Positions 19,130 through 43,816 of a stretch of 64,000 nt of DNA are shown piece after piece. Source of the DNA: Escherichia phage vB_EcoM_G2494; sequence record MK327935.1. One strand, given 5' to 3'. Every line of letters begins with the position of its first letter. Position 1 is the first letter of the stretch. A model generated the notes under the pieces. It saw only the letters and a list, made by a program, of their open reading frames with translations. It had not been told where the DNA came from and searched no databases. Both the position numbers and the translations under genes were made by a program.

Positions 19130-19339
19130 TTAAGACCACTCAAGAGTTTTTGAAAACACATCTATCCATTGTTGAGTATATGCGGTTTCTTTCCATGATA
19201 CAATACCAGTAGAATAATGGTTTTTGTTTCCAGAAAAGGACGGGCATTTTGATGCGTCTTCCATCATCTTTTCGGCGAACTCTGGTTCGTATACTCGCAA
19301 GATCTGTTGATATGCTTTGTAGTCTTTAAATTTGCTCAT
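19130..19339 (-). CDS. hypothetical early protein (69 aa)
   Basis: intact copy MSKFKDYKAYQQ... Confidence 0.55.
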   Translation of the reverse strand: MSKFKDYKAYQQILRVYEPEFAEKMMEDASKCPSFSGNKNHYSTGIVSWKETAYTQQWIDVFSKTLEWS

Positions 19340-19604
19340 AATCGTTAACTACCTTATCAGCTTCTTTTATTGTTTTTACATCAACTGCGATAACCCGTAA
19401 AGGTTCGTCATGGTTCCACCAATGATCGTGAATATCGGCTTGTGATTTATCACCAAAGGAATCACGAATATCATTTTTACATTTATAGCTAATGTGACCT
19501 TCATAGTCAACATAAAGGTAATTATCGAAAATCGGCGTTTTTAAGATCATACCGAAAAATCTTTCTTTGTGTGTCTTATCCAGTGTTGCAGTAATTCGCA
19601 TCAT
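19326..19604 (-). CDS. HxHW-motif family member d
   Basis: YLYVDYEGHISY...HDHWW...VIAVDV. Confidence 0.6.
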   Translation of the reverse strand: MMRITATLDKTHKERFFGMILKTPIFDNYLYVDYEGHISYKCKNDIRDSFGDKSQADIHDHWWNHDEPLRVIAVDVKTIKEADKVVNDYEQI

Positions 19605-20091: not shown

Positions 20092-20101
20092 CAACTTTTT
20101 T

Positions 20102-20410
20102 TTATTCTTCATCTTCATCATTATCTTTATATGCGTACTTCATAAATTTGTCTGCTACTTCGTCCGCGTTTTCAGGTTCTACGTCTGACGCTAGGACAAC
20201 AGCTAGTTCGGTTTTGTCGTTTCCATCATACCAATGATTATGAGTGTCGTTTTCTTCGATATAAAACGAATCAGTTGGAGTTGTGCGACAATATACGTCT
20301 AAATTCCCATCGATATAAAAGATCCAATCCGAATACAAAATGATTGTTTTAGCAAGATTTTTATTGTCTCTCACAAAAGGTTCTGAGACAAATAGCTTAG
20401 TTTGTTCCAT
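20102..20410 (-). CDS. HxHW-motif family member e
   Basis: WIFYIDGNLDVY...HNHWY...AVVLASDV; ATG at 20410 with GAGGAAAA RBS. Confidence 0.6.
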   Translation of the reverse strand: MEQTKLFVSEPFVRDNKNLAKTIILYSDWIFYIDGNLDVYCRTTPTDSFYIEENDTHNHWYDGNDKTELAVVLASDVEPENADEVADKFMKYAYKDNDEDEE

Positions 20411-21265: not shown

Positions 21266-21445
21266 TTACATCACAATCACGCCAGCCGTAGAAAGTTGAT
21301 GTTTCAACTGAGCATTTTCTGCTACTGTCAAATCAATAATTTCTTGTGACGCTGCAATCATATAGCCATTGGTGATATTGTTTTGCATCAGTTCAATGGT
21401 TTCTTCGTTGTAGCGGATTTTAGCGATGATTTCGTTGAAGTTCAT
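21266..21445 (-). CDS. small early protein (59 aa)
   Basis: ATG behind cassette RBS; not in ORF track. Confidence 0.5.
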   Translation of the reverse strand: MNFNEIIAKIRYNEETIELMQNNITNGYMIAASQEIIDLTVAENAQLKHQLSTAGVIVM

Positions 21446-21479
21446 AATTGATTCTCCTAGTTCGTTTCGGTATGTGTGT

Positions 21480-21509
21480 ATTATAGGGGAGTTTAACCTC
21501 CCCTGTCAA
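21480..21509 (-). promoter_or_regulatory. sigma70-like early promoter
   Basis: TTGACA, palindromic spacer (18 bp), TATAAT. Confidence 0.5.
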
Positions 21510-21517
21510 CAACTTTT

Positions 21518-21829
21518 TTAAAGTTTTTCCATGATAACGGTCATAATTACATCTTCTGCGCGAGCGGTCAGATTATCAGCGTCAGCATGTGGGCGGTTGG
21601 TTGTTACAGAGATAACACCGTTGCGCACTGGTTTGATATTGATATCAAGATGATCCGCGAAACGTTCGCCAGTTACAGAATGAATTTTGGTGTTAAATTC
21701 TTTTGCCAGTGCCTTGCGAACTTCACGAATCAGGATAGCGTTTTTCAGTTGGTTCTCCGCGCTCATGGTCTTCTGGGTGTTCATGGTTCCGTCGAAGTCA
21801 ATCATTGGCAGCGTTACGATGTATTTCAT
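21518..21829 (-). CDS. hypothetical early protein (103 aa), paralog of 17953-18240
   Basis: shared LAKEFNTKI segment. Confidence 0.55.
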   Translation of the reverse strand: MKYIVTLPMIDFDGTMNTQKTMSAENQLKNAILIREVRKALAKEFNTKIHSVTGERFADHLDINIKPVRNGVISVTTNRPHADADNLTARAEDVIMTVIMEKL

Positions 21830-21874
21830 TTTTGATTCTCCGTTTAAGAAAGTGTGTTTCGTTTTGATGTGTGT

Positions 21875-21903
21875 AGTATAGGGGATACGTGATCCCCTGT
21901 CAA
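21875..21903 (-). promoter_or_regulatory. sigma70-like early promoter
   Basis: TTGACA, spacer GGGGATCACGTATCCCC, TATACT. Confidence 0.55.
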
Positions 21904-21996
21904 CAACTTTTTTGAATTATTTTTTCATGAGCTTAATGGCTTCTTCCATAGCCAGCACATTTCGATAGTTAGGGTATCGTGTTAGATCGTCATACA

Positions 21997-22028
21997 TTCG
22001 CTTAAGGGTGGATTCGCTTAAGGGTGGA
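21997..22028. repeat. perfect 16-bp tandem duplication (TTCGCTTAAGGGTGGA x2)
   Basis: two adjacent identical 16-mers at 21997-22012 and 22013-22028; creates the stop of the 22002-22262 ORF. Confidence 0.9.
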
Positions 22029-22262
22029 AACTTCCTCAAACTCTGGGTTTTCTAGATACAGTTGAACAAATTGTTTCTCTACCATCTCGGCTTTTAGCTT
22101 GTCTGCTTGTTCCTGTTCATATGATTTAGTTGGACCCAACACCAACAAAATGATAAAGGTGATCAACGATAGGAGAACATAACCGATAACGCTACGGTTT
22201 AAACGGCTTGCGTACATGCCTACCAGGAAAACAAAAAGGATATAGATAAACAGAAAGAACAT
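22002..22262 (-). CDS. small membrane protein (86 aa), apparently C-terminally truncated
   Basis: two hydrophobic helices; stop generated by 16-bp duplication, old frame stays open 26 further codons. Confidence 0.5.
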   Translation of the reverse strand: MFFLFIYILFVFLVGMYASRLNRSVIGYVLLSLITFIILLVLGPTKSYEQEQADKLKAEMVEKQFVQLYLENPEFEEVSTLKRIHP

Positions 22263-22269
22263 ATAATGG

Positions 22270-22743
22270 TTACTCCTTATTTTCGCGCTCGTACTTTTCG
22301 AAATAAAATTCTACTGGCTGGTCGTGGATTGACAGTAAGCCAAAGCGTTTAGCCGCTCGCAATCCCATATTGCGCTGAATGTACTTCTGGAAGTTCTCGC
22401 GTATACACTTACGCCAGTATTCTAAGCCCATACAGCTTTTGTAAAGATTGCATTGCACACAAGCCGGATTCATATTATCAAGTATATCGTGCTCCGGTTT
22501 ATGCATTCCTACAACCTTATACTTCCACGATCCATCATCATTACGGGCAATTCGTCCATTTTCATCATAGACTACCTTTGAGCGTCGCAATACTGGTTTG
22601 ATGTGGTCTGCGTGCCATCGGTCCCCTAGTTCCTCGCCACAATAGGCACAACGCCCACCGTATTTCATTTTCAGGATCTGGCGTTGCTCTTTCTTTGACA
22701 ATTTTTTAGGTTTAGGGGCTTTCGCCCCTTCATTATCACACAT
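22270..22743 (-). CDS. HNH endonuclease (157 aa)
   Basis: CAYCGEEL...WHADHIKP...CVQCN HNH zinc-finger motif. Confidence 0.65.
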   Translation of the reverse strand: MCDNEGAKAPKPKKLSKKEQRQILKMKYGGRCAYCGEELGDRWHADHIKPVLRRSKVVYDENGRIARNDDGSWKYKVVGMHKPEHDILDNMNPACVQCNLYKSCMGLEYWRKCIRENFQKYIQRNMGLRAAKRFGLLSIHDQPVEFYFEKYERENKE

Positions 22744-24238
22744 CGAATACCTCTTTTACTGTATTTGCAGTGGTCTTGTCGTAGCGAATACGTTTGATGA
22801 TCGGGAGAAATAAAGAGAACTCCGGTTCATCTTCTTTACGTGATTTGCTGCGGATATACCCGTTGCATGTCATCTCAATGACTTTTCCAATCAGGTTATG
22901 ACGGTCAGCCCATAACATTTCTCGGTCGAGTTCATTTCGACGATCGAACGGAATTACACGTTCAGTACCATCATCACCTTTTTCGGTTGTAGTGTCGGTT
23001 AATCCCGATCCGGTGTTAGTCATCATTCGTCCGCACGCACTACGGACAGTAAAACCGCCTACCTTATTGGGGTCTTTACTATGCGGATATGCATCAACAA
23101 TTTCCGCGTCGAAGTCAATCACTTCTTTAAATTTAACCTGATCTTTACTACGGCGATCTTCAAATACACCATGTAAATTTTTAAGGATAATACCTTCTAA
23201 GCCCATGTTTACATAGCGATGATATACTTCGCGAGCTTCATCGATATTGTTAACTACAGTGTTTTCGATTATCTGAACACGAGGATCGTTAAGTTCTTCA
23301 ACAATCTGTTTTAGTTCTTCGAATCGATCTTTATATTGCTTCGTTGCTTTCTCGTTTCCGTAATACACATCACGGTCGATAACATCCCAGACAGTGTAAA
23401 CAATACATTGGGCTTCTTCTTTTGGAATAGTTCCTTTAAGTGATTTGTTGAGGATACCATTTCCGGTCTGACGATCTGCAACAACGGATTCTTTCACTGC
23501 TTCCGCTACTGGCGTTAATGGCATTTCCTCTTCTTCAAATATCCATGACAGAGTACCATCATAAACGCTTTCAACGAAGTTCTGCGCTGGTGTTTGCGAA
23601 AGGGTAGGCATATATACCAATTCGCCATCTAGAACAATTCCACGGCCTCGTAGACGCTCTAAAACCGCAAACAAATCATCAAGTCCTTGATAGGTATTAC
23701 CTGAGCGGGTATAGATTGCTAATGTTTCCCCGTCAATATCAGCCATACCACGAGCGCCATCGCTTTTAAGTTGTGCATACGCCGGATACTTGATATTAGC
23801 AATAGTCTTATCAGAACATGACGATGCAAGGTGGCACGGCTGCTGGGGGATCAGTTTCTTCCATACCTTGTTTGCAGTGGTAGCGGAACAACCGCATTCC
23901 AGGTCACGATTCAGGACCATCATTGCAACTTTAGCATCATCTTCTGACAAGCAAGTCAGAGTATCGGTAACTAGCTGTAATGCTGCATTACCAGTTACTT
24001 GACGCGTGGCAAGTTTATTTTTAAAGACCTGCAATGCACCGGATAAAGACAATACAGACGAATAACGCGATGGTTTATCGTATTTCTTTACGCCAAACGT
24101 AACCTGTTTGCAATATGCCAGATAAAAGCATTCTTTCAGCGTTTCATTGCTCGCGGATTCTTTCAGAATCTTTTCTTTCAGCGATGTTTTGTCTGTTGTT
24201 GCAAGCTGATTAATGATATTAAGAATTGACATTTTCAC
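22736..24238 (-). CDS. 30: ATP-dependent DNA ligase gp30
   Basis: 500 aa; adenylation motif LKSDGAR; VMMxRDLECG and LIDGELVY segments match T4 ligase. Confidence 0.85.
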   Translation of the reverse strand: MKMSILNIINQLATTDKTSLKEKILKESASNETLKECFYLAYCKQVTFGVKKYDKPSRYSSVLSLSGALQVFKNKLATRQVTGNAALQLVTDTLTCLSEDDAKVAMMVLNRDLECGCSATTANKVWKKLIPQQPCHLASSCSDKTIANIKYPAYAQLKSDGARGMADIDGETLAIYTRSGNTYQGLDDLFAVLERLRGRGIVLDGELVYMPTLSQTPAQNFVESVYDGTLSWIFEEEEMPLTPVAEAVKESVVADRQTGNGILNKSLKGTIPKEEAQCIVYTVWDVIDRDVYYGNEKATKQYKDRFEELKQIVEELNDPRVQIIENTVVNNIDEAREVYHRYVNMGLEGIILKNLHGVFEDRRSKDQVKFKEVIDFDAEIVDAYPHSKDPNKVGGFTVRSACGRMMTNTGSGLTDTTTEKGDDGTERVIPFDRRNELDREMLWADRHNLIGKVIEMTCNGYIRSKSRKEDEPEFSLFLPIIKRIRYDKTTANTVKEVFDV

Positions 24239-31820: not shown

Positions 31821-33007
31821 AGATATTTCCCGAATCGGTTGTAGTCATCGTCTGTTAAATCGGTATTAACCTGAGATACCAGATACATGATCTCTACTTC
31901 TTGCGCCGCGTTTTGAACTTCGTCAGAGTTTAACCACTTACGCATCCACGGTAAAGGATGACGACGAACACTAAACGGGCTTTTCAGTCCGGCAGCACGC
32001 ATACGGGAATCTGCCAGGTATTCTACATAGGTTTTCAGAATTTCCGGTGACAGGTTAGGAATTGCCCCCATTGCGAATAGGTGGTCTACCCATTCTTTTT
32101 CTTGCTCGACAACATCCAGAAAGATTTTCGTTGCTTCGCCTTCAAGTTCTTCCGCAATCTGTTTCCACTCATCACCATCAACCCCAGTTTGCCATTGACG
32201 AATAATGTATTGTGTGCCTTTTAAGTGAAGTTGTTCATCACGCGCAATAAATTTCATGATCTTCGCGTTACCTTCCAGTAAACCACGTTCGGCAAAGCTG
32301 AAAGTACATGCAAAGGACACATAAAAACGGATTGCTTCCAGTGCATTTACGCAGTGTGCACACAGATAAATCGAAGCCATCAGATCTCGTTTTGTGTCTT
32401 CAAAAAATCTTCTTGCATCATCTAATTCTGTCTGATCGTCTCGTTCTTCCCAATAGTGGTGGAGAACTTCTTCTTCCCAATAGCGGAGATCTTCTTTTGC
32501 ATTCTCATACTTACGAATCCAATAGAGAACATCATCATAATATTTCCCGATAGATTCCGCTCGCTTCATGATAGAAGGGTTATCGATGATCTGGTCGAAC
32601 TCACTAGCAGGATCAATAAAACAGTTACGCATAATGTGTGTATAGCTTCTGCTATGAATCGTTTCGCTGAATGTCCATGTTTGCAACCATGTATCGAGAG
32701 TTGGATCAGATACAATTGGACCAAATACACGGGCTGGCGCTCTGCCTTGAATCGAATCTAGCAAAGTTTGATAACGTAAGTTCTCGGTGAAGAAACGCTT
32801 TTCAACATCGCTCATATTCAGATATTGAATGCGGTCAGTTGCAAGTGAAATCTCTTCTGGACGCCAGAAAAATGACAACTGCTTCTCGATCAACTCTTCA
32901 AATACTTGATGACGCTGAATATCATAACGGGCAATCCCTAAATCACTACCAAAAAACATCGGTTCGGTCATAATATCAACATGTTCACGATTAAATACGC
33001 TCATCAC
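31817..33007 (-). CDS. nrdB: ribonucleotide reductase small subunit
   Basis: 396 aa; diiron ligand region LEGEATKIFLD...; uninterrupted (no intron). Confidence 0.85.
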   Translation of the reverse strand: MMSVFNREHVDIMTEPMFFGSDLGIARYDIQRHQVFEELIEKQLSFFWRPEEISLATDRIQYLNMSDVEKRFFTENLRYQTLLDSIQGRAPARVFGPIVSDPTLDTWLQTWTFSETIHSRSYTHIMRNCFIDPASEFDQIIDNPSIMKRAESIGKYYDDVLYWIRKYENAKEDLRYWEEEVLHHYWEERDDQTELDDARRFFEDTKRDLMASIYLCAHCVNALEAIRFYVSFACTFSFAERGLLEGNAKIMKFIARDEQLHLKGTQYIIRQWQTGVDGDEWKQIAEELEGEATKIFLDVVEQEKEWVDHLFAMGAIPNLSPEILKTYVEYLADSRMRAAGLKSPFSVRRHPLPWMRKWLNSDEVQNAAQEVEIMYLVSQVNTDLTDDDYNRFGKYL

Positions 33008-36444: not shown

Positions 36445-37665
36445 TTATACTGCCATTTGAGCGGTGATCGCTGGATGGCTTTGATAGTTGTGAATTTTAA
36501 AGTCTTTCGGAGTCTTTGTCAATACCTCATCTAAAGATTTAAATTCCGGCAACTCAATTGTTGGTTTATCAAACGGAACACGGCTTAACTGTTCCATAAC
36601 TTGATCAAAGTGGTTTTTGTAAATGTGAGTATCTCCACCAGAGAAAATCAGTTCTCCTACCTCAAGATCACACATTTTCGCTATGATGTGAGTTAACAGC
36701 GCATAGCTGGCAACATTAAAGGGCAAGCCCAAAAAGCTGTCTACGCTTCGCTGAAACCACATACAAGACAGTTTACCTTCATTGACGTAGAATTGCACGA
36801 AAGGATGACATACACCTAATACAGCATTATGTGTTCCTTGTACGTTCCATGAGTCAATAATGATCCGGCGATCCGTTGGATTATTTTTAATTTGTTCAAT
36901 CACGTTTTGTAACTGGTCTTCCCAAATCTTCGGGCGATAGACATATTCTTCATCGTCTTTAGGGCTTGATGTGTCTACATCCATACTAACAAAGATCGTG
37001 GTATCAGGTGCTAAAATGTCACCGCCCAGATATTCATTATCAAACAGATAACCGAAATAACCATCATCTACCCATTCCTGGAATCCCCACAAGCAATATG
37101 CATCATTAACAAAATTAGATTGAGTCTTCCAGTGATCTGCTACCAGAATATAATCAAACTCTTCATAACGCATACCACGCCAGATAGCACATAAACGGTC
37201 TTCTGTTTCATTGGTTGGCGTAAAGTCTTCTACCCACGGGTGTTTAAATGTATGTGTATATTTGCTCTTAACGCGCTTAATTTTGATTTCACCGTGTGGA
37301 TGAATCGGTTTGCGTCGCCATGCCATACCATACATATTGCCGACATTATAACCATTGAATCGCAAAGGATTCTTTTCTTTCATATCAAGACAGTTGCCGC
37401 GCCAAATGTCGAAGGCTTCTTCGTCAAACTTACCGCGTGTAATTTCCTGTAAGCGACGGCGGTCAAGTGATCCCTCCATAAACCATAGCAATTCACCAAT
37501 TACAGAGGCTGTAGCCATCTTTTTAGTGGTCAGTAAGGGGAAACCCTTGCTTAAGTCAATTCGCATTTCTGCACCGAATTTAGAGAGCGTACCTATCCCC
37601 GTTCGGTCTTCACGAGGCCAGCCATTATCAAGAACATCACGCAACAGTTTCAAATATTCTTTCAT
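36445..37665 (-). CDS. td: thymidylate synthase with ~120-aa in-frame insertion
   Basis: ThyA motifs DRTGIGT, catalytic Cys in LGVCHPF, MWFQRSVDSFLGLPFN; 406 aa versus T4 Td 286 aa. Confidence 0.8.
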   Translation of the reverse strand: MKEYLKLLRDVLDNGWPREDRTGIGTLSKFGAEMRIDLSKGFPLLTTKKMATASVIGELLWFMEGSLDRRRLQEITRGKFDEEAFDIWRGNCLDMKEKNPLRFNGYNVGNMYGMAWRRKPIHPHGEIKIKRVKSKYTHTFKHPWVEDFTPTNETEDRLCAIWRGMRYEEFDYILVADHWKTQSNFVNDAYCLWGFQEWVDDGYFGYLFDNEYLGGDILAPDTTIFVSMDVDTSSPKDDEEYVYRPKIWEDQLQNVIEQIKNNPTDRRIIIDSWNVQGTHNAVLGVCHPFVQFYVNEGKLSCMWFQRSVDSFLGLPFNVASYALLTHIIAKMCDLEVGELIFSGGDTHIYKNHFDQVMEQLSRVPFDKPTIELPEFKSLDEVLTKTPKDFKIHNYQSHPAITAQMAV

Positions 37666-37999
37666 CCCACATCACCTTTTTCTTATTGATTGCTTTCTTA
37701 CGCAGTTTTGCTACTGTCTCGTCAATATCGATAAAGACAACGCCACGGTCGAATACAGTAGCAGGTCTTGAGATATCGCTATTTTCTTGCACAGGAAGCC
37801 ATGATGCGCTCGCTTCATCATAGAGATATTATAAACCGTAATAATCTACGGCTACTGCGTAGTTTTCACTGGTAGCCGTCCATAATTGAATAATACCGAC
37901 TTTCATTATTGTTCCCGTCCGCAATGTAAGCACCGACTACCAGCAAACATTAAAGATTCACCACAATGTTTGCACTCATAATCTGTCAGAATTTTCATG

Positions 38000-42262: not shown

Positions 42263-42661
42263 TTAACCCTCTTTCGTCATTAATTGAAAACCACGTTCAG
42301 CTTTTGAGATTTCGCTAGGACTTAAATCGTCACCCACATATTCTAGCATCATTTCTCGGATAATGTCAAGTGCTTTTTCATCACCTGATTTTAACTCGAA
42401 CTCAAGTTCATAGTGAGCATCTCCCATGACTTCGCCGACTTTGCAATAATAGAAAGTGTCTTTGCACATTTCCACTATAGCACCCTCAAGGTCAAGTGTC
42501 AATGACTTGCGGTATGTCCTTACTTGCAATAAAGGAACGATAAGGTCGGAGTTTACGCCTAGACTATCAACATAATGATAGAAATCATCCATTGTTGAAA
42601 AAGTGATTTCTTCTCGGTTGAATAGTCCAGATTCACGATCACCTATTTTGAGCATGATCAA
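42263..42661 (-). CDS. hypothetical protein (132 aa)
   Basis: ORF. Confidence 0.5.
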   Translation of the reverse strand: MIMLKIGDRESGLFNREEITFSTMDDFYHYVDSLGVNSDLIVPLLQVRTYRKSLTLDLEGAIVEMCKDTFYYCKVGEVMGDAHYELEFELKSGDEKALDIIREMMLEYVGDDLSPSEISKAERGFQLMTKEG

Positions 42662-42858
42662 TGATCTATTAACGTCAAGTCTAGATAAATTCCTTTTCGA
42701 CGCAGTGCATGATCTTCGTTATCATAATAAAATTCGTGTTTTAGTGTGTTAGCATGATCTACGATATTGTACCCGTCATACATTGCTACCCACAAATCAC
42801 AGATTGTTTCGACGCCAATTTGTGAGTGTGCATAGTATTTTAATTCAAGTTCTTTCAT
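42658..42858 (-). CDS. hypothetical protein (66 aa)
   Basis: ORF. Confidence 0.45.
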   Translation of the reverse strand: MKELELKYYAHSQIGVETICDLWVAMYDGYNIVDHANTLKHEFYYDNEDHALRRKGIYLDLTLIDH

Positions 42859-42868
42859 ATGTCAACCC

Positions 42869-43816
42869 TTAGAACTCACCAATTTTCTGCAACATTTTAA
42901 CTAACGCATTTGTTACAAAATAGTTATAAATTTTACCGCGTGGTGCTGGTTTAGATTTTTCCCATGCTAACAAAATTTCATATTCGATGTTATCAGGAAT
43001 AAATTCAAAATCAATAAGTTCGCGGTTTTCGTCAAAGCGTCGTGCTTCTTCCTCTGTCATCAAAGACTTTGGATCTTCGGCATCGAAAATTTGCTCTAAC
43101 CATTTGGTTGCAATTGGTTTAGCTCGTTCCCCTTCCAGTCGTGAGATAATGAAATCACTACGGCACTTGATCGAAGCTACACCGTCTTTTGCGTCACCCT
43201 TAACACATTTTACCATCAGGTCTTTGTAAGGGCTACCATATTTGCATTTCTTCCATGCTTTCTGTACTGGCGCCCACTGTTTCACGTTTTTGTATTTGTG
43301 CAACTGTGTGTAGTCACCATCACCTGAGTTGATCAGCACCTGGCGACCTTCGACAGAAAACTTTTTAGTTAATACAGCGATTATATCATCTGCTTCAACT
43401 TTGTCAACCTTAATAACGTGATAAGGCATGTTCTCTTTAAACTCTTCGGTGATCTTATTGATCGCAGCAAAGATCATCTCCCAATCACGCGGATCTGCGT
43501 CTCGTTTTTCCTTACGGTTGCGTTTATAGTAAGGGGCGATATCACGTCGCCAGTAACCTTTACTTGAATCAAAGGCAAGTACCGTAATTGGGTATTGCTC
43601 TTTGAATTTTGTCATATTATAACGCATGGTGTCAAGGATAAGATGACGGATCATGCCTTCATTAATAGGGTCTTCCGGTTTAAAGGTATGCGAGATAGTA
43701 GCAATCATAAGCTGCGACATATCAATCAAATGCACACCTTCCGGTAGTTTATCTTCTGGATCATCAAAGAAATCATTAAGTGTAGCGATAGTTTTTGTAA
43801 ACGGGTTATACGTCAT
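42869..43816 (-). CDS. rnh: RNase H (5'-3' flap exonuclease)
   Basis: GYWRRD, YKRNRKEKR, EADDIIAVL, KGDAKDGVASIKCRSDF match T4 RNase H. Confidence 0.9.
   Translation of the reverse strand: MTYNPFTKTIATLNDFFDDPEDKLPEGVHLIDMSQLMIATISHTFKPEDPINEGMIRHLILDTMRYNMTKFKEQYPITVLAFDSSKGYWRRDIAPYYKRNRKEKRDADPRDWEMIFAAINKITEEFKENMPYHVIKVDKVEADDIIAVLTKKFSVEGRQVLINSGDGDYTQLHKYKNVKQWAPVQKAWKKCKYGSPYKDLMVKCVKGDAKDGVASIKCRSDFIISRLEGERAKPIATKWLEQIFDAEDPKSLMTEEEARRFDENRELIDFEFIPDNIEYEILLAWEKSKPAPRGKIYNYFVTNALVKMLQKIGEF

Follow-up and report, generated by a model that had tools for sequence, protein, structure and literature searches.

The gene of a small early membrane protein in Escherichia phage vB_EcoM_G2494 (sequence record MK327935.1) is truncated by a perfect 16-bp tandem duplication. 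The analysis was performed on a window of 64,000 nucleotides of this genome, to which all positions refer and which belongs to a Krischvirus, i.e. an RB49-like T4-type phage. The duplication is very probably not a regulatory device but a real, recent and spontaneous event, private to this lineage, in an accessory gene that is dispensable and in the process of loss.

Tandem duplication and its effect on the reading frame

The unit TTCGCTTAAGGGTGGA is present on the plus strand at 21997-22012 and again at 22013-22028. TRF reported the repeat at 21996-22028 with a period of 16, 2.1 copies, 100% matches and a score of 66; the run of matches was 17 nt long and comprised the 16-nt unit plus 1 nt of boundary ambiguity. 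No longer perfect tandem duplication was found within the 64-kb window, the runner-up having a unit of 9 nt. In shuffled windows (n = 200) the largest perfect tandem unit was 11 nt, and the chance expectation for perfect duplications of period 16 was 2.9e-5 per window. The duplication noted at 21997-22028 in the preliminary description was thus borne out by direct sequence look-up, by TRF and by the shuffles.

The gene is encoded on the minus strand (Table 1), where the duplication falls on codons 79-89 of the 114-codon native gene, in its 3' quarter. A length of 16 nt is not divisible by 3; translation therefore continues through the second copy in the +1 frame and reaches a TAA three codons into the shifted frame. 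This premature stop (22004-22002) is provided by the internal TTAA of CTTAAG, which is read as CTT-AAG in the native frame. The resulting 86-aa ORF (22262..22002) ends with ...STLKRIHP and the stop codon. The truncated protein has lost the conserved 26-residue C-terminus and still contains its two transmembrane helices along with about 35 tail residues. The ATG of native M89 (21997-21995) is located 4 nt downstream of the premature TAA.

Deletion of one copy in silico resulted in a 109-aa ORF with its stop at 21917, in which 26 native codons (MYDDLTRYPNYRNVLAMEEAIKLMKK) are regained at a net gain of 23 codons. Translation of the minus strand agreed with the earlier claim that a +1 frameshift with a TAA in the second copy ends the 86-aa ORF. 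It had also been claimed that removal of one copy lengthens the ORF by about 26 codons and that the restored ORF ends beside the downstream promoter. The long ORF does reopen, and the number of 26 holds for the native codons recovered, but the net gain is only 23; the position of the end was confirmed, the -35 hexamer following 13 nt after the stop at 21917.

Table 1. Features of the duplicated region in the vB_EcoM_G2494 window
Feature	Position	Strand	Remarks
Sigma-70-type promoter, TTGACA-17 nt-TATACT (11/12 matches)	21875..21903	-	Starts 13 nt beyond the native stop of the gene; serves the RB49p210 homolog at 21829..21518
Stranded native C-terminal segment, 26 codons (MYDDL...LMKK) plus stop	21917..21997	-	Out of frame; 3' part of a 40-aa ORF at 21917..22039
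Downstream copy of the 16-nt unit	21997..22012	-	+1 frame, I-H-P-stop; corresponds to a 16-nt insertion relative to Sf20 and JSE
Truncated ORF, 86 aa (83 native residues plus IHP)	22002..22262	-	Homolog of RB49p211, EpJSE_00218 and Sf20 gp80 (114 aa, phrog_25625); identical to QBO63176.1
Upstream copy (coding strand) of the 16-nt unit TCCACCCTTAAGCGAA	22013..22028	-	Native frame, S-T-L-K-R; single in the alignment of RB49, JSE, G37-3 and G2248
Second private lesion, surviving single 9-nt direct repeat CGTTGATCA	22160..22168	-	Relatives have CGTTGATCAttagccCGTTGATCA
HNH endonuclease, RB49p212 homolog, upstream neighbour	22270..22743	-	Stop codon overlaps the AAGGAG Shine-Dalgarno region of the membrane-protein gene

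Comparison with related phages

A total of 58 phage records, each from a Krischvirus of Escherichia or Shigella, matched the region 21500-22800 with 90-99% identity. The orthologous locus was fetched and read from 17 distinct phages, including those encoding RB49p211, EpJSE_00218 and Sf20 gp80. A 345-nt ORF of 114 aa with exactly one 16-mer was found in each of the 17, and in the alignments the unit TCCACCCTTAAGCGAA, which is arranged twice head to tail in G2494, was present once in every relative. With a 171-nt query centred on the repeat, 155 nt were aligned in all 21 gene-carrying records, which equals one copy. A two-copy form shared by all relatives would have contradicted the preliminary description; the opposite was observed, with one copy and the 114-aa ORF in 21 of 21 records. 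As all gene-carrying records have one copy, the duplication is derived and private to G2494.

No two-copy junction was detected in the collections of metagenome and genome contigs searched. Among the IMG/VR viral contigs neither the two-copy junction nor the one-copy form was detected, so the silence of that collection is uninformative. A split arrangement in two frames is used by none of the 17 relatives, all of which encode the protein in a single frame. The 86-aa product forms a singleton cluster among approximately 15 billion proteins and is annotated only in vB_EcoM_G2494 (QBO63176.1, hypothetical protein G2494_00215).

Between the G2494 gene copy and its nearest orthologs there are 2 substitutions, neither of them private; only two indels are private. 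Because private substitutions are missing, both lesions appear young relative to the divergence of about 1% that separates the nearest sequenced relatives at this locus, and 'recent' is to be understood in this relative sense only.

Second lesion in the same gene

The second private indel is a 15-nt in-frame deletion, which was missed in the preliminary description and is carried by none of the relatives. At the deletion site RB49 has CGTTGATCA-ttagcc-CGTTGATCA, of which a single CGTTGATCA is kept in G2494; this deletion between 9-nt direct repeats is a textbook slippage deletion. Five residues (ISPLI) are gone from the motif LSLIISPLITFIILLV in transmembrane helix 2, so that ...LSLIISPLITFIILLV... 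is turned into ...LSLITFIILLV.... In a family alignment of 18 members, which takes in metagenomic homologs of only 30-40% identity, residues I34, I35, S36 and P37 are conserved in 17, the G2494 protein being the sole exception. Because of this conservation the presence of these residues is ancestral, and the deletion strikes the most conserved part of the family. Removal of one 16-nt copy would not give the wild-type protein, since ISPLI would still be missing.

An independent 15-nt in-frame deletion was observed in Logan contig SRR24962617 (gene at 795-1124), where FVQLY is lost from the helical tail. With 1 nt of microhomology, this deletion brings the short indels recorded in this 345-nt gene to three. 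A 109-aa protein (P0003) was considered as a one-copy intermediate of the G2494 allele and was rejected, as its deletion is independent and located elsewhere in the gene.

Protein family and predicted structure

The intact protein RB49p211 matched phrog_25625, a family of unknown function, over positions 1-114 (E = 3.7e-76). The G2494 product was aligned to this family over 79% of the query with a 5-residue gap, short of a full-length profile match. Judged from its sequence, the 86-aa protein is a damaged phrog_25625 member by descent and not a full-length one. In tblastn searches the full-length protein was found only in the 21 Krischvirus records. Residues 1-50 of the intact protein match phrog_9201 (55 positions) and the N-terminus of a 209-position family; as a stand-alone family, phrog_9201 matches the transmembrane hairpin alone. 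Residues 15-48, which form the hairpin, share 50-65% identity with the N-terminal part of proteins of about 200 aa from Asteriusvirus jumbo phages, e.g. 121Q gp451, and in metagenomic homologs (among proteins P0006-P0018) the hairpin is joined to a zinc ribbon (PF10571 or PF13248). The jumbo-phage loci with hairpin proteins were those of 121Q, Turkey3 and TH47. An N-terminal motif G-x-x-AS-x-x-x-RS-x-x-G...LSLIISPLITFIILLV-x-G is common to phrog_25625 with RB49 ORF211 and to the wider hairpin relatives; the G2494 copy differs from the phrog_25625 relatives in having neither ISPLI nor the C-terminal 26 residues. No Pfam family covering the hairpin itself was found, and comparison of the intact protein to Pfam, NCBIfam, PADLOC and PDB sequences yielded only sub-threshold noise, with no function assignable.

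The ORF211-type protein has a pair of transmembrane helices at its N-terminus and a tail that is helical as well. An AlphaFold2 model based on an 18-sequence alignment was of low confidence (pLDDT 66, pTM 0.28), and its secondary structure alone was used. Helices were predicted in this model (pLDDT 66) at residues 2-20, 25-47, 53-76, 83-94 and 102-113; the truncation would remove the last predicted helix and about half of the preceding one. The hairpin looks like a membrane anchor for variable C-terminal domains, and since it seemingly serves as such, loss of the tail is likely to matter.

Selection, distribution and genomic neighbourhood

In the relatives the intact 114-aa ORF is under purifying selection, including its 26-residue tail. 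Among the 17 intact orthologs 19 codons are variable, 14 with synonymous changes only and 5 with a conservative replacement (L/M, I/L, I/V, P/T, D/E). The crude dN/dS ratio of these 17 orthologs is near 0.1 (75 synonymous and 267 non-synonymous sites). The 26 codons lost in G2494 show 3 synonymous and no non-synonymous changes among the 17 orthologs, and the C-terminal tail is retained in a homolog of 79% identity (P0004).

The ORF211-type gene (window 21917-22269) is present in 21 of the 58 matching Krischvirus records; approximately 37 of the 58, e.g. Phi1, GEC-3S and ECD7, are without it. In genomes of the Phi1 type the same promoter region follows directly on the HNH gene, the C-terminus of which differs slightly. 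As most Krischviruses do without the gene, it is dispensable, and its absence from about two-thirds of the relatives makes gene decay a better fit than regulation. Since the downstream gene is served by a promoter of its own, only slight polarity is expected from the premature stop. In the spacer of this promoter a 7-bp hairpin (AGGGGAU-CACGU-AUCCCCU) was noted at 21880-21898 on the minus strand, with an RNA fold of -11.7 kcal/mol and z = -2.3. In Phi1 the stem is kept (GGGGATC...GATCCCC) and the loop is different. The hairpin has no U-run and hence is not a canonical terminator.

The locus has several features in common with accessory-gene decay in T4-like phages: a surrounding block of small early ORFs, each under a sigma-70 promoter of its own, a free-standing HNH endonuclease adjacent to the gene, and presence/absence mosaicism, with about one-third of Krischviruses carrying the gene and two lesions in it in G2494. 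Such decay is usually seen in the form of end states, whereas the G2494 copy is a freshly broken intermediate in which no substitutions have accumulated.

Origin of the duplication

The sequence comparisons establish the duplication, the frameshift, their restriction to G2494, the second lesion, purifying selection in the relatives and the dispensability of the gene, whereas the mutational mechanism, the loss of product function and the order of the two lesions are inferred. A 16-nt stretch of the small early membrane-protein gene was duplicated head to tail, probably via replication misalignment or template switching. Reading of the second copy in the +1 frame leads to the TAA in CTTAAG, giving a product of 83 native residues plus IHP at the cost of the 26-residue C-terminus. 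The same gene copy has also lost 15 nt by slippage between the 9-nt direct repeats. In G2494 the gene is best regarded as a pseudogene or a crippled allele.

In T-even phages spontaneous frameshifts arise by short tandem duplication through misalignment of the Streisinger type, as in T4 rII and lysozyme. Classical slippage duplications are usually 1-5 nt long or bounded by direct repeats of several nt. The G2494 duplication shares with the T4 rII and lysozyme frameshifts the perfect head-to-tail arrangement, a length that is not a multiple of 3 and the premature stop; the duplicated stretch is present only once in the relatives, and the event is confined to a single T4-type phage lineage. In contrast to classical T4 slippage, its unit is 16 nt long with 1 nt of microhomology at the junction, and it may be a product of template switching or break repair. 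For the 16-nt duplication simple slipped-strand mispairing is one possible explanation, and template switching or misaligned repair is equally possible. Origin from a DNA hairpin or quasi-palindrome was rejected, the fold energy being equal to the shuffle mean (z = 0). The proposal of a recent slipped-strand event can accordingly be kept as to 'recent', given that private substitutions are missing, and is weaker as to slippage, given the single nucleotide of junction microhomology and the z value of 0. An open-access literature search on T4 duplication frameshifts retrieved nothing directly on point.

Alternative explanations

If the duplication were an assembly or consensus artefact, the true genome would have one copy and the extra 16 nt would stem from assembly or polishing. 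In the source study, sequencing was done by PacBio RSII with HGAP3 or by MiSeq with SPAdes (k = 55), and coverage was inspected (PMC6563267). A perfect internal duplication of 16 nt is atypical of both assemblers, the errors of HGAP being 1-nt indels in homopolymers and those of SPAdes at k = 55 being k-sized terminal repeats. It is true that the two-copy allele is known from only one deposited genome, and that a CYTH-domain gene is also frame-broken in comparison with the relatives, by a 1-nt deletion near 42685, which could hint at an imperfect consensus. However, the second independent lesion in the same gene, a clean repeat deletion, fits real decay better than two coincidental errors. Furthermore, when 78 Sf20 proteins were compared to the window by tblastn, 75 were matched, and 70 of these 75 were encoded at at least 98% of their length in a single frame. 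This per-protein check replaced a blastn gap listing against Sf20 and JSE, which was noisy because of paired 1-nt gaps in divergent stretches. Clear frame breaks were limited to the ORF211-type gene and the CYTH-domain gene; two more small ORFs differ in divergent regions. An artefact is therefore considered quite improbable; the phage stock itself may be heterogeneous at the repeat.

A regulatory role had been suggested in the preliminary description, namely a phase-variable switch, in which the duplication would be gained and lost often and the phage population would mix long and short forms of the membrane protein. In favour of a switch are the inherent instability of tandem duplications, which may revert exactly, the ready recombination of T4-type phages and the reopening of the 109-aa frame when one copy is removed. 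The product of such a reversion would, however, still be without the conserved ISPLI, and the gene is missing altogether from most relatives. Contingency loci are built from many copies of 1-8-nt units, are usually located near the 5' end and are polymorphic between and within strains. The G2494 locus resembles them in that a tandem repeat in a coding region sets the frame by its copy number and is reversible in principle; it differs in having exactly two copies of a 16-nt unit and no simple-sequence tract, in its position in the 3' quarter of the gene, away from the 5' end, and in the lack of copy-number polymorphism in the 21 records and in the metagenome and genome contigs. The suggestion of a switch was not upheld on these grounds and is very unlikely to be correct. 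Hardly more can be said for a wider version, in which the locus would be a selected hotspot of 15-16-nt indels, with an early membrane protein being inactivated or remodelled again and again in T4-like phages, perhaps in a reversible way, and the two-copy allele being one state of a toggle; one possible reason would be a host defence that senses the C-terminal tail. If true, a toggle at the population level would be a rare phase-variation-like behaviour in a lytic phage, and nothing found points there. The mutation might also be real and not inactivating, either because the truncated form is selected or because the gene works in two pieces or by +1 rescue. Loss of the tail could, for example, let the phage escape a host defence sensing it; alternatively, the 26-aa tail could be re-initiated at the ATG that lies 4 nt past the stop, or reached by a +1 slip at CCU-UAA. 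Such a shift at CCU-UAA-G would indeed re-enter the native frame, but the internal ATG is not preceded by a Shine-Dalgarno sequence and no stimulatory structure was found. A search for a programmed frameshift at CCU-UAA-G revealed neither a Shine-Dalgarno-like stimulator upstream nor structure above background, and Rfam gave no match on either strand of 21400-22900. Residual or altered function of the truncated protein is possible, as both transmembrane helices and about 35 tail residues are kept, and the hairpin is known both from a family of its own and as the anchor of C-terminal domains that are unrelated. The number of independent 15-16-nt indels in so small a gene, three with the one from the Logan contig and the two of G2494, also speaks for this reading. 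Against it, purifying selection acts on the tail wherever the gene is present, no relative has the split arrangement, the family is without known function, and the accompanying deletion in the conserved motif suggests that selection has been relaxed over the entire gene. A mutation without loss of function is thus regarded as unlikely.

Other differences from related phages in the window

The CYTH-domain gene (homolog of Sf20 gp113 and EpJSE_00248, approximately 42266-42870, minus strand) is split into two frames by its 1-nt deletion relative to Sf20 and JSE and is the second frame-broken accessory gene in the window. At the deletion site the relatives have GGAATTTATGCaCGAC and G2494 has GGAATTTAT-CTAGAC, which is not a homopolymer. 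The homolog of Sf20 gp105 (37637-37906, minus strand) has 51 instead of 87 aa, with a stop in the tblastn alignment, and that of Sf20 gp71 (19130-19342, minus strand) has 69 instead of 87 aa; the two homologs are located in divergent stretches and could simply represent different alleles. The window is without counterparts of Sf20 gp65, gp95 and gp108 (a putative endonuclease), which represents further accessory-gene mosaicism.

An imperfect tandem repeat was detected by TRF at 32444-32496 (minus strand; period 24, 2.1 copies, 82% matches) in the homolog of nrdB, the gene of the ribonucleotide reductase small subunit; it represents an in-frame insertion of 27 nt that neither Sf20 nor JSE has. 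Two further in-frame differences from Sf20 and JSE are located in small early ORFs of a divergent region (70-81% protein identity): an 18-nt insertion at 20099-20130 in a stretch of TTTATC-type hexamer repeats, and an 18-nt deletion at about 20815.

Implications

The G2494 allele is a clean example of an accessory gene caught newly broken and is of little wider importance. In the annotation, QBO63176.1 deserves a flag as an RB49 ORF211 homolog with a frameshift and a truncation instead of being treated as a normal 86-aa protein. The ORF211 family, whose conserved transmembrane hairpin is shared with jumbo phages and metagenomic zinc-ribbon proteins, is dispensable. Within Krischviruses it has been lost repeatedly, yet purifying selection acts on the gene in those phages that have kept it.
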